From Eledone cirrhosa (lineage: Eukaryota): a DNA stretch of 64,000 nucleotides. The notes under the pieces are model-generated. The model made no database searches, had not been told where the DNA came from, and was given only the letters and a program-made list of their open reading frames with translations. Position numbers and translations under genes: made by a program. Location of the stretch: positions 226,672,001 to 226,736,000 of the forward strand of contig OZ024743.1 of the NCBI GenBank assembly GCA_964016885.1, read 5' to 3'. Positions 11,714 through 52,232 of the stretch are shown here, piece by piece. The stretch's first letter is position 1. The number at the start of each line of letters is the position of its first letter.

Positions 11714-11895
11714 AACGACTAAATGAATTTGTGTCATCCAACTTCTACTTCATGTCTAGTCGTTTATTTTTCCTATATATTTAAATGTATATATATATAT
11801 ATAACGAAGGAAATGTGGTAAGGACCCAGATGGACCATAACGCACCAAAGTACTCAATACTTAGGGTAGTAGAGTGGGTAATAGGAACAAGTAGG

Positions 11896-11991
11896 ACCCC
11901 GACGGCTGAGCTCAAGCCGTTTCGACGGCTAATTCTGGACTAAATAAAAATGTTTAGCCTGGTAAATGAATAGCCGAACTTCTCAGGGGGT
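11896..11991 (-). ncRNA. Type I hammerhead ribozyme (G8A core variant) in pLTR
   Basis: acccc CUGAGAA g..cggcta/tagccg..c GAAA cggct-tgagctc-agccg UC ggggt; partial mirror copy at 14096-14172 (+). Confidence 0.7.
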
Positions 11992-12285
11992 AATTCCATA
12001 TATGGTAAAAATGATTGTCACAAGGATTGGTCAAAAGTTTGTTGTTAAGACATATGATTCTATCATGGCATTTTGTGGAAGGTAGAGGTAGCTGAACTTG
12101 CCAGTAGAAGAAAGAGGGAGAGGGAGTGGAGGAAACCCAGTCAAGTGTTGAAAGTGAAAAATACAGCAGATTCTAAGGATAGGGTATAGAAAGTCGATAA
12201 AAGTATACTTGAGAAGGGGAGGGGGCGGGAAGTTGAAACAATAAGTAAATCTAAAGGGAGTAAACAAAAAAGCCATTATAAAAAT

Positions 12286-12830
12286 CATAATCAACAAAAA
12301 CATCAAACTCTCCTACAGCACCACACCTAACTTTGCACAAAACATGGTCTCCTCTAACAACAAAAAACTCAACCCCTATGGAAGAAATAACCTAGATAGC
12401 AGTGGAGAGCCGACCAGGAGGTGTAATTGTCCTGATGGATCCCTTTGCCCCCTCGACCACAGATGCAGAGATCGTAATGTGATCTACCAGTGCAACGTGA
12501 GGACGGACACCTCCAACAAAGCTTATATAGGATTAACCGCTTGTGACTTCAAGACCCGGCTCTACCAACACAGACATACTTTCCGAAACCCGGCCCGGCG
12601 TCACGCCACTACACTTTCGGGCCACACCTGGGACCACAAAGATAATCATATAACCTACAATCTCACTTGGAACTTACTGTCCAGAGCCAACTCTTACACG
12701 GGAGGCCGCTGTCCGTGTAACTTATGCTCGGAGGAAGCACTACAAATTCTGTTTTCGACGGACCAACTCCTAAACAAGACGAACTGGTAACTGCATGCAA
12801 ACACAGATTGCGTAGGCCTTACCTCGCCCT
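12286..12830 (+). pseudogene. PLE GIY-YIG endonuclease C-terminal remnant
   Basis: ORF 12344-12790: CNC..CPL...C..NVIYQC.V...AYIGLT..FKTRLYQH...CNLCSEE. Confidence 0.9.
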
Positions 12831-15800
12831 CAAACCCCATAATGACCCGGGGGGGGGGGGCAAAAGCTGAAACACCCACACTTGCCGACTTTGTAAAGGG
12901 GTAACCCCTGCTTACAAAGGTAGACGTAACTTTTTTATATATTCTTTTTTATATATATGTTATCGTTTCCGCTATATTCCCTTCTTCCCCCATCCCTTCC
13001 TAGTCCTTCCACCCCAGATCTCCTTCTTTGTCGTCATTCTTTGCTCCTTCTCGCCCACCCCGATGCAGCCCTTCGGTCCTCTGTAGCCTCAGTACCCCAC
13101 CCCCTTATTTTATGAAAGAATTGGCCGATTCCGCTTTTTAAAGCAGATGTGCTAGACCCCAGATACTTGCTTTCTTCTCTCGTTGCTGCCCCATTTCCGT
13201 GATTTCTAGATTTATTAGTGGTATTTCTGCTTTAGTTTCTTGTATATTACTATTTATTTTGGGGGGATTCTGAATTAATATTTCGTATTAGTTTTTCATA
13301 TATATTGTACGATTATTTATGTAGATTGTATTAGAATTTATGTATTGTAGCTGTATTTATATATAGTGTATTAGTTTTTTAATATATATTGTATGAGTAT
13401 TTATGTAGATTGTATTAGAATGTATGTATTGTAGCAGTACTTTTATATATATTGTATTAGTATTCATGTTTCGGGATTCTGAATTAATATTCCGTATTAG
13501 TTACGGAGTTCTGAATTAATATTTCGTAGTAGTTGTTTTAGTATGGTGGTCCTCAACTTATTAACCTGTCACTGTAATATAGCATTGGCTGATTACTACT
13601 AACTATCGTAGTGGTGGTAGACCCCCTGTAATGAAGGCCTCATACAATTCTTTCACTACAATCTCGTATTTAGTATTCCTTCCCACCTATTAAACTTTTC
13701 TATAGATTAGCAGTACATGTGAGAGATTTGATGATTGTGGAAGGGAAGTAGTAACCAGAAATTGTTTTTTATATTTTTTTATATATTTTTTATATATTTC
13801 CTCATTTTTATAATGGCTTTTTTGTTTACTCCCTTTATATTTTTACTTATTGTTTCAACTCCCCCCCCCCTTCTCCAGTATACTTTTTTCGACCTTCTAT
13901 ACACTATCCTTAGAATCTGCTGTATTTTTCACTTTCAACGCGTGACTGGATTTCCTCCACTCCCTCTCCCCCTTTCCCCGAACTGGCAAGTTCAACTACC
14001 CCTACCTTCCACAAAATGCCATGATAGAATCATATGTCTTAACAACAAACTTTTGACCAATCCTTGTGACAATCACTTTTACCATATATGCAATTACCCC
14101 CTGAAAAGTTCGGTTATTCATTTACCAGGCTAAAAATGTTTATTTAGTCCAGAATTAGCCGTCGAAACGGCTAATATATATATATATATATATATATATA
14201 TATATATATATATATATGTATATATTTAATATAGAAATAGGTTCTACAGGACTTGAACTGTTTCATTCGAAGGAATATATATATAAATATATATATATGT
14301 ATCAGGGTCTTGTTTACGTCTGAGCTGGTGTTTATATCTCCCATAACAATCCAACAAAATACAGCTCGAAAAATAAGTTTAGACTTATAGAAATATGCCT
14401 AGTCTTGATATGATGGACTAAATGAAGGCGGTGCATCAGCAGGACCTCAATTTAATAACTGAAACTAATCGAAAAATTAAAGAAGATTATAAATGAAACG
14501 GGAAGTCTAGCACCATTCAGTCTTGGGTCGCTATTTGTTGGTATTCTTTGGAGGAGTTTTATACAATATAAAATGATATTATTTCCTTAACAAAAATTTG
14601 GCTTTGTTCACGAACAAAAGAAAATATCTCTTTTACACTTTAGAAAGATGTTCATTTATTAAACAGGAAAGTCATACATTATTCCATTATTTTAATATTC
14701 TATTCTTCATATGTGTTTATATATATGAAGAATATATATATATATATATATAATAAGGGTTGACGGACCCAGCATATTTATCAATGCCAGTACCGGTTGT
14801 ATCTCAGCGCACTATGGTAATGTAAGATACATTACCAGAGTATACACAGAGTTATTTGCCTCAACACAGCACACATAAAACGGGTGCCTATAAGGTCCCC
14901 GGACTCGAGTTTCTGCCGCACTAATGCAGCAGTAAGGTGCACTGCACCATCTGTATGCATATACTATGAAACAATGCACAATCGGCCTATGCGGCTTCAT
15001 CAGCGGGCATCGCCTAATCAATAACCAATCGATCGACAGAATCCAAACACCGGCCCATGCCGGTCATGACTGTTTGTGACAACCCGCACGGCAAAGCGAT
15101 TAGTAACAAGCAAACTATAGGACTCTATCTCTCAACTAGCCACTGATTTACAAATTTTACGTGGGGACGAGAAGCTAAAAAGAATCAATCTTTTAGTTCC
15201 TGTTAGAAGCCCTCAGTCAACGTGTCTCACACACAAATTATCAAGGGGGGAAAAGATGGCTTTAGAAATAGCAGTTCGCATTGATATAAAATAGAATGGT
15301 AGCATTCGGTTCATGTCTCCAAACCCCATATATATATATATATATGTGTGTGTATGTATATAATATGATATGTTCATACACAGAACAAAAGCGCTATCCA
15401 ATGTTTCTAGGTCAAACTTTGATTAAATCACAAGAATAAAATAAAGATCAGAATTTTGACCTATCATCAGGCGCTTATACAAATTTATAAGAACATTCAT
15501 GAATAACATATTTCTGCCCTCTTCCCGATTGAGCACTGTTTTACTTTTTACCTTTTTTAAATCTACAGATATTGCTACACACACATACACGCGCACGCGC
15601 ACACACACACACACACACACACACACACACACACATACTTATTTATATATATGTATGTGTGTGTGTGTGTGTGTGTGTGTGTGTGTGCTGAAACTCACCG
15701 CGGAAAAACAACCGGCTGTTCGCTTATAGTTCGCACGAGCAAGGCAATCCTCAGTCAACCGCCTAAAACCTCAGATATAATCGAGAAGCCAGAGTAGAAC

Positions 15801-50460: not shown

Positions 50461-50872
50461 TAGGGCTTCTAGCCCCATATTTAAACCCCCCCCACACACA
50501 CGCTTACACCTCCACTTATTCTCTCTCACACATACACACACAAAACCAGTTCTAACACCAGATAACACCTATCCCCCACATTTACGAATAGACTTATCTT
50601 CTCACACTCACACACACACACACTCACATACTTACACCTTCATGCATTCTCCCACACACTTAAACAGGCATGTATATAAAAACAACCCTAAACAAACCCC
50701 TTCTAATTAGGTTAAAATTAGGTGGATAAAGAGTAGTCTCCTAAAGGGAGACTACTCTTTATCCACCTAATTTTAACTCGTTGACATTAGAGATAGAACA
50801 GATACTCTATACTATTTCCTGTCAGCATGGCTTTGCAAGATATTTAGAAGGCTGGTTTGAGACCTTTATTTC

Positions 50873-50907
50873 CCTCTGATGAAGAGATATTATCTCGAAA
50901 ATTAAGG
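50873..50907 (+). ncRNA. Minimal type I hammerhead ribozyme in the pLTR
   Basis: cct CUGAUGA a gagata-t-tatctc GAAA at UA agg; ~135 nt upstream of the ORF ATG copy. Confidence 0.7.
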
Positions 50908-51717
50908 ACATTTAAATAAATCTAAGGTAAAAGACAAATTGTCAATAATATCATTTGCAATTGCATTCTTTTTTTCTATGTCCATACCTGCATTGTTTTG
51001 GCTTTATTATACATATTCAAACGTTTATACCTCATTACACAATGCTTCAAGTGAACTATAACCTCCTCCATATATATATATATATATATATATATATATA
51101 TATATATATATATATATATATATATATATATATATATGCATATATCCATGATTACATAGATAGATAGATGTATACATACATACATACATTCATATATACA
51201 TACGTACATACATATATACATACATATATATATATAGATACTTATGTATTTATGTATATTTACAACAGTATGCACAACCTGCTTTCATATATTAACAATG
51301 AAATTTGGGAAATTGCGCAGTCATTCGTGTTATACGCGCAGCAATCTACCCTCATAATTTAACATCCTGTTTTAATATATATTCAGATATACTCGTGTAC
51401 ATACATATATGTATATATATATGTATGTGTATATATGTGTGTGTATATATGTGTGTGTGGGAGTGTGCGTGTACGTGTGTGAGTGCGTCTGTGCTTGTAT
51501 GTATATGTATATATCTCTTCTAATGTGCAATCACTTAAGACATCATCTCACGCTCGTTTTGTCTTTGCAGGCATCGGTTAACTCTCGGTTTCTGTGTCTC
51601 TCACCTCCCTGTATCTCTCTAAGTACACCACACACACCTATATATATATATATATATAAGTTATATATATATATATATATATATATATATATATATATAT
51701 ATATATATATATATATA

Positions 51718-52232
51718 AATTTTGAGTTTATGTTGGTTGTATACCAACACCTCAGTATGCAGGCTGGAGCACTCGACGAAGTGCGCAGGTTGGTTTGGTT
51801 ACTCCGGAGTAGTGTAAAATAAAGTTAAATAAAAGTCAAATGATTAAAATTTAGCAATTTAAATAAAAGTCAAATGATTAAAATTTAGCAATTTAAATAA
51901 AAGTCAAATGATTAAAATTTAGCAATTTCCCAAATTTCATTGTTAATATATGAAAGCAGGTTGTGCATACTGTTGTAAATATACATAAATACATAAGTAT
52001 CTATATATATATATGTATGTATATATGTATGTACGTATGTATATATGAATGTATGTATGTATGTATACATCTATCTATCTGAAGAGGTCACAGCCAAAGA
52101 TGGCTGTCACTGAAATATATATAGCAGTAATAAACGAAGCTAAATTTTAATCATTTGACTTTTATTTAACTTTATTATATATATATATATATATATATAT
52201 GTATATGTATATATATATATATTACACTAACT
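51718..52232. mobile_element. Foldback pLTR insertion with templated filler
   Basis: 51818-51855 mirrors 52139-52176; 34-bp unit x3 (51825-51928); 159-bp inverted copy of host 51158-51316; HHR core at 52079. Confidence 0.8.
52079..52127 (+). ncRNA. Hammerhead ribozyme core lacking the 5' strand of stem I
   Basis: CUGAAGA ggt c acagcca-aaga-tggctgt c act GAAA tatata UA. Confidence 0.65.

Follow-up and report, generated by a model that had tools for sequence, protein, structure and literature searches.

The window analysed here, a 64,000-nucleotide (nt) stretch of the Eledone cirrhosa genome (C4:226,672,001-226,736,000 of the 3.0-Gb assembly GCA_964016885.1; contig OZ024743.1), carries eleven insertions, nearly all of their outer ends lying at (TA)n, in which two outward-facing arms of Penelope-like elements (PLEs) or of non-coding hammerhead retrozymes are joined head-to-head. 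Their most telling feature, unnoticed in the preliminary description of the window, which was made from its letters alone, concerns where the arms end: each family has a short and a long class of 3' end, and a pair nearly always combines one of each. Partner arms share a template lineage, are often not nested in one another, and meet at junctions with mostly short overlaps. These features are probably the product of twin target-primed reverse transcription on one RNA, with the arms ending at two fixed sites and then being end-joined.

The counts come from the window, from 600 kb picked blind (200 kb adjoining the window plus 100 kb each from C1, C2, C3 and C9) and from genome searches, in each of which only the 40 best candidates were scored, so that the family samples favour young copies. 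Longer stretches were taken for 40 coding-family loci, and the family of element 4 was scored from its copies lying within other loci. In the 525-nt retrozyme family the 3' ends lie at +57 or +172, counted from the predicted cut site of the hammerhead ribozyme; other bimodal families end at +20/+98, +125/+165, about +135/+168 and 0 to +12/about +52, and three more families are bimodal as well. When each end was assigned to the short, long or other class independently of its partner, and divergent pairs without an inner (TA)6 were counted, 131 of 142 head-to-head pairs from eight families, coding and non-coding, were short+long, in either order (64 with the short arm on the left, 67 with the long). 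The rest were seven short+short, four short+other and no long+long. Short and long ends are similar in total number, and for the 138 classed pairs the rule has a binomial p of about 1e-30. Set aside from this tally were ten more divergent pairs that contain an inner TA tract; eight of them are mixed and two short+short. The first two letters are TA at ten of the 13 start sites. An accumulation of the 5' ends of long arms at the short site was considered and dropped, short arms often being just as short.

The preliminary description had proposed that two complementary DNAs (cDNAs), primed from the two ends of a break in (TA)n, are joined at their truncated 5' ends, and the arms support two separate cDNAs. 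At 13 of 28 loci of the retrozyme family the long arm contains the short one, and at the other 15 neither contains the other; at L091 and L116 the arms share no sequence at all, and long arms consisting only of tail recur in families 1 and 3 and in element 11 (see below). Partner arms are nonetheless related in descent. Those of the retrozyme family agree at 117 of 120 subfamily sites, compared with 63% after permutation (none of 2000 permutations as good), and differ by 2.1% within loci as against 2.9% between loci (18 of 24 loci, p 0.004); 14 locus-private variants are common to both partner arms, and 92 variants occur in one arm only. Coding-family partners agree at 139 of 164 subfamily sites, against 68% permuted (0 of 2000), and pairs of mixed family number four, with L006 besides, against 138 of the same family. 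Successive units within one arm agree at 121 of 123 sites, which fits what a circular or homogeneous tandem template would predict. Junctions at 28 loci show overlaps of 1-7 nt in 20 cases and of 25 nt in one, blunt joints in two and inserts of 2-44 nt in five; short templated inserts are present. Reads matching the 525-nt unit belong to a diverged relative (mostly 90-95% alike); they include six opposite-strand joints, from few reads and of unreadable direction, and 15 contigs whose long site bears a loose (TA)n end. These signals are too weak to be counted and are no check on the loci of the window itself.

Two RNAs rather than one might be copied by an asymmetric dimer whose subunits each take one, the first invariably starting at the short site and the second at the long. 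This would account equally well for the end rule and for non-nested arms, and mixed-family pairs do exist, three of the four being short+long (L006 is a further case). However, such pairs make up only about 3% despite the many abundant families, and partner arms have both subfamily and locus-private variants in common; copying of two RNAs is accordingly an unlikely general account. The origin of the end classes could alternatively lie at the DNA level, with the endonuclease (EN) resolving a transposition intermediate by staggered nicks at the short and long sites. The literature is cited here from the sections available, and among these Craig et al. (2021, PMC8557442) consider the tail to arise “most likely” from EN-mediated resolution; the endonuclease of PAc, a Poseidon element of Anolis carolinensis, prefers AT-rich sites (PMC11167929), and the end sites here are T/TA-rich. 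Against this, PAc reverse transcription begins on the RNA exactly at the two tail boundaries (PMC11167929), and DNA-level resolution alone would leave sequence-disjoint arms and independently variable 5' ends unexplained, which makes it quite an improbable source of the two classes.

Self-priming, in which one cDNA or an antisense template folds back at a short palindrome and copies itself, has been published as the origin of palindromic head-to-head junctions: in Arkhipova et al. (2013, PMC3846280) the head-to-head arrangement is given as the commonest, and an antisense template is proposed as the substrate of self-priming. Shared variants are compatible with it, some centres are symmetric on 4-nt self-complementary words (family 6, L160 and L253), and three short+short pairs are nearly symmetric at the centre (L102, L218 and L252), making it a possible minor route. 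But two cDNA ends could also anneal at self-complementary words, the family-6 symmetry is inflated because the query began at the centre, and fold-back needs the copied arm to be nested in the first. Nesting is absent at 15 of 28 loci, and in several pairs the arms have no sequence in common, so these are not fold-back copies; the end rule, the shared template and the non-nested arms together weigh against self-priming, which was rejected as the general route and is very unlikely to be it. That the palindromes are assembly or amplification chimeras, or true fixed-centre miniature inverted-repeat transposable elements (MITEs), is scarcely credible: palindromes next to long (TA)n do pose assembly difficulties and a few family-1 junctions recur identically (L158/L220, L069/L075), but the arms have decayed independently (75-99% identity, besides the one-arm variants), their ends fall at sites particular to the family and different in the two arms, their flanks are not mirrored and their centres vary.

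In the twin-priming reading, a PLE protein, probably a dimer, would cut a (TA)n tract on both strands, and the 3'-OH of each DNA end would pair by 1-4 nt with a UA-starting RNA site downstream of the hammerhead. One end would prime at the short site; its partner would use the long site, 40-145 nt further 3', and the cDNA begun there would displace the short-site cDNA or stop inside the tail. Copying of both cDNAs would pass through a hammerhead site left uncut or re-ligated (circular) and would stall variably, often at RNA hairpins; the truncated cDNAs would then be joined by host microhomology-mediated end joining. Extension from a top-strand 3'-OH at the left end would make the left arm minus-sense, and the mirror-image reaction would make the right arm plus-sense, which is the geometry observed. 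Non-coding retrozymes would borrow the PLE machinery. A stronger version, to which we give somewhat better than even chances, is that twin priming is programmed, one dimer making a double-strand break and priming both DNA ends at two fixed sites on one, often circular, RNA; that the PLE tail and the inverted pseudo-long terminal repeat (pLTR), long without explanation, are thereby two faces of one step; and that the process has left some 100,000 self-complementary ribozyme inserts here, a possible major source of double-stranded RNA (dsRNA) for editing. A relative is found in LINE-1 twin priming: the second DNA end primes on the same RNA, and microhomology joins the two cDNAs where they meet head-to-head. 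For LINE-1 the second priming site is internal and differs from case to case, and no sequence is present in both arms, whereas both sites here are fixed and near each other, so that the arms usually overlap and form a palindrome.

Several observations count against twin priming on one RNA, or limit it. The four or five mixed-family pairs need two RNAs or a later deletion. Shared variants would fit one RNA, two transcripts of one source locus or one active master equally well, and overlaps of 1-3 nt at alignment ends are possibly due to chance. Seven short+short pairs depart from the end rule, two of them judged by eye to be mis-scored (L221, with an internal deletion, and L234, interrupted); element 2, which falls under the identity cut-off of the tally, is another exception, both of its arms reaching the long site. 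The short and long windows were defined on the same data that were counted, and segmental duplicates are possible among the loci (L113/L114, L046/L091). Three of the 13 start sites do not begin with TA, and for PAc the start site is alike on both strands with no homology at the priming site (PMC11167929). The preliminary description called the two-armed insertion the normal product; this holds for about 60% of the best-sampled family (29 of 49 retrozyme insertions, counted by hand), with about 17 of the 49 having one arm only. These one-arm insertions, together with one 19-nt partner arm, suggest that arms may shrink to nothing. Lastly, all the evidence is genomic.

Biochemical work on PAc offers the closest parallel. 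In vitro, both strands of an AT-rich target are cut and extended (Frangieh et al., 2024, PMC11167929); two internal reverse transcription start sites bound the tail, a dimer is predicted, and uncut RNA is used, hammerhead cleavage being unneeded. Twin priming as proposed here would match these data, with the difference that priming homology is absent for PAc while most start sites here begin with TA. The PAc model ends with one copy and second-strand synthesis and, in the sections available, does not address inverted arms (“inverted” appears once, for a primer block); the study leaves the later transposition steps unvalidated (PMC11167929).

Much of the architecture is already published, namely the head-to-head joining of 5'-truncated arms, the tail on one side, the preference for (TA)n and the pairs of hammerheads on opposite strands. 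In EN+ PLEs the 5' end carries a 5'-truncated copy in inverted orientation, the tail is often confined to one end and (TA)n is favoured; how such tandem and inverted structures form is, according to Craig et al. (2021, PMC8557442), the open problem in PLE transposition. Like the elements here, the known EN+ groups (Penelope/Poseidon, Neptune, Nematis; Naiad/Chlamys) show partial tandems, microsatellite bias and reverse transcriptase (RT) plus GIY-YIG domains, but their tail is described as “optional”, it is 30-40 nt long as opposed to 40-145 nt here, and inversion is ascribed to self-priming or EN resolution (PMC8557442, PMC3846280). The available sections of these two papers give no count of tail/no-tail pairing, template sharing or sequence-disjoint arms. 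Among minimal PLE hammerheads, dual ones on opposite strands and 100-700 bp apart have been noted (Cervera and de la Pena, 2014, PMC4209133). What appears to be new is the quantitative end rule, the shared template and the non-nested arms, which together offer a testable mechanism for the open PLE step; in the literature searched, neither the pairing rule nor PLE twin priming was found, a provisional statement in that older PLE papers may hold a similar model.

Retrozymes would gain a direct mechanistic link to PLE enzymes. Animal non-LTR (long terminal repeat) retrozymes, like those here (units of 525, about 270 and 468 nt), are non-coding tandem units with one type-I hammerhead each and form near-identical multimers (PMC7229834, PMC7761336, bioRxiv 10.64898/2026.07.22.740005). 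The copies described here differ in carrying the full PLE end signature and in being joined to PLE sequence; “inverted” does not occur in the available text of PMC7229834 and occurs only in a reference title in that of Li et al. (2026, bioRxiv 10.64898/2026.07.22.740005). A retrozyme arm is joined in the same sense to a PLE RT open reading frame (ORF) in L024:1-1159, and another to the terminal repeat of family 9 in L124; with the end signature, these joins tie retrozyme insertion mechanistically to PLE enzymes, and they hint at the retrozymes' partner enzymes. Octopus has exceptional dsRNA potential and hyper-editing, and in lizard the LINE-class (long interspersed nuclear element) repeat that is heavily edited is Penelope (PMC5625713); inserts of this kind may contribute to the dsRNA potential and hyper-editing of octopus.

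Outward polarity and centres that vary within a family had been put forward as the genome-wide signs of this architecture, and both were found. Over 664 kb (the blind stretches and the window), a custom strict type-I descriptor located 72 hammerheads where shuffles gave 0.33, and homologous hammerheads on opposite strands formed 11 pairs, every one divergent rather than random in polarity. The 142 divergent pairs without an inner (TA)6 compare with 14 convergent neighbours, all of them TA-split or no more than 30 nt apart. Centres vary within families, unlike the fixed centre of a MITE, but cluster at hairpins and just upstream of or within hammerhead stems. TA-flanked inverted repeats were filtered by identity (at least 85%), arm length (at least 40 nt), lack of an inner (TA)8 and nearness of TA (no further than 200 nt away on either side and no further than 12 nt on one of them), with overlaps merged. 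In the blind stretches and the window, 34 of the 36 that passed have a one-sided tail of at least 25 nt. The 400 kb sampled from four other chromosomes hold 17 young TA-flanked foldbacks, which by rough extrapolation would give about 100,000 or more in 3.0 Gb if density were uniform.

The inserts are PLEs and non-coding hammerhead retrozymes. Element 9 encodes RT followed by a C-terminal GIY-YIG domain, as EN+ PLEs do (Pfam RVT_1, E 7.5e-15; GIY-YIG, E 6.4e-08), and has a pLTR, 50978-51069 repeating the start of the ORF at 49477-49568; the type-I hammerhead expected in a PLE pLTR is also present. Full pLTR-ORF-pLTR copies with an inverted arm occur in L245, L249 and L271. Target-site duplications, if present, would be masked by the flanking (TA)n. 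Elements 1, 3 and 11 gave no Pfam match (four of seven queries were blank); elements 1 and 11 match each other (E 1e-22) across a Cys-linker/GIY-YIG-like region read by eye. The 525-nt unit, in up to 2.7 copies per arm, is non-coding and tandem with a type-I hammerhead per unit, as in non-LTR retrozymes, and a 468-nt hammerhead unit forms a head-to-head array of three minus and 15 plus copies (G000:C3:200076135-200084426, L078-L079), mostly 0-4 differences apart. MITEs have fixed length, fixed centre and equal inverted ends; here centres and lengths vary and the ends are unequal in 135 of 142 pairs, and the small palindromes are one-off truncation products, not an element class of their own.

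In the window itself, nine of the ten inverted pairs first described were recovered by self-BLAST in place, with arms 75-99% identical, and the tenth (element 10) by family BLAST (51818-51860 against 52134-52176, 97.6%); none of 20 shuffled windows gave an inverted match of at least 30 nt. The descriptor found 11 type-I hammerheads, against a mean of 0.07 over 30 shuffles. The left arm is minus and the right arm plus in all ten, as read from ORFs, hammerheads or family copies. The preliminary description needs correction in several respects. Its positions hold, but one-sided tails had been left out of elements 5, 6, 7 and 9 (corrected to 29592-30218, 42424-42663, 43165-43673 and 46379-51069). 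With these spans, and with the right end of element 10 placed at 52176, 19 of the 20 outer ends touch (TA)n or come within 6 nt of it, the exception to the claimed abutment being the left end of element 8. The pairs had been called mostly unrelated in sequence, yet elements 2 and 8 prove to be one family. And the count of about ten, borne out as far as it went, overlooked an eleventh insertion at 36268-38372, whose arms share no sequence. The eleven insertions are as follows:

Element 1, 11803..14174: left arm minus (11803-12285), right arm plus (from about 12286); PLE 3' end with a Cys-linker GIY-YIG region; left end long, at +98 after the hammerhead cut site, right end at -14; variant core CUGAGAA; Neptune/Nematis-like in by-eye resemblance only.
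Element 2, 26274..26513: an old 75% palindrome of the family of element 8, its centre inside the hammerhead.
Element 3, 26537..29032: minus arm of 80 nt (26537-26616) with a short end; plus arm (26617-29032) with a long end, holding PLE RT-thumb, GIY-YIG and 3' untranslated region; variant core CAGAAGA; a short interspersed nuclear element lies inside at 26886-27080.
Element 4, 29058..29570: PLE terminal-repeat palindrome, left end long, right end short; canonical hammerheads at 29270-29304 (minus) and 29378-29412 (plus).
Element 5, 29592..30218: head-to-head insertion of the non-coding 525-nt hammerhead retrozyme; left end long (+172, tail 29592-29702), right end short (+57); hammerheads at 29764-29834 (minus) and 30091-30161 (plus); the junction is a 25-nt overlap within a native hairpin.
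Element 11, 36268..38372: minus arm (36268-38226) with a short end; plus arm (38227-38372) consisting of tail only; ORF 36663-38228, RT-thumb/GIY-YIG; a head-to-head join with no inverted repeat.
Element 6, 42424..42663: tandem retrozyme-like unit (about 270 nt, with a tRNA-Ser-like gene) arranged as a palindrome; left end long, right end short, at the predicted cut site; variant core CUGAGGG.
Element 7, 43165..43673: tandem hammerhead unit with arms 84% alike; left end long (+168), right end short; the family core is canonical, with one damaging change in each arm here.
Element 8, 46200..46330: decayed 77% palindrome; hammerhead at 46230-46268 (minus); left end not at (TA)n.
Element 9, 46379..51069: minus arm (46774-49568) with an RT and GIY-YIG ORF and an in-frame stop between the domains; plus arm (49568-51069) 5'-truncated within RT, with a hammerhead at 50876-50904 and a long end (+165).
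Element 10, 51718..52176: left arm long (51718-51921), with a 34-nt unit in three copies; right arm starting at the hammerhead core (52079) and ending at the short site.

By the strict descriptor, elements 4 and 5 have a hammerhead in both arms and elements 8, 9 and 10 in one. Cores are canonical in five of the eight families and variant in three. The variant cores of families 1, 3 and 6 are fixed family-wide, which makes catalysis by elements 1, 3 and 6 doubtful; that these families are nonetheless abundant genome-wide is consistent with cleavage being dispensable for insertion. An Rfam scan of the window gave sub-threshold microsatellite matches and no hammerhead among the 150 of 206 matches listed, and six hammerhead regions folded as RNA had z-scores of -1.35 to +0.61, no support on their own.

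Some elements have peculiarities. The hammerhead of element 11 has an apparent U3-A8 core pair, seen by eye. The tRNA-Ser-like gene of the family-6 unit (L128:1895-1968, L129, L144) is a possible RNA polymerase III promoter for the retrozyme. The left arm of element 9 is without a terminal repeat of its own and runs on in the same sense, from 46776 to 46379, into the long end of another family, a fusion that may reflect a template switch or a deletion; in the same element's terminal repeat, 50711-50777 is a 67-nt near-perfect hairpin partly absent from other copies. The junction filler of element 10 (51922-52078) is a 157-nt perfect inverted copy of 51160-51316, about 600 nt away.

The window also holds single-arm hammerhead or tail fragments, most of them between (TA)n tracts (14234-14269, 14902-15003, 30278-30470, 35891-36071 and 42693-42810). 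At 30991-32736 there is a tandem duplication with a 700-nt period and 97% identity that ends in (TA)n, and at 55441-56611 a minisatellite of 42 copies of 28 nt. Decayed LINE-like RT fragments were recognised by eye on the plus strand at 20577-22124.

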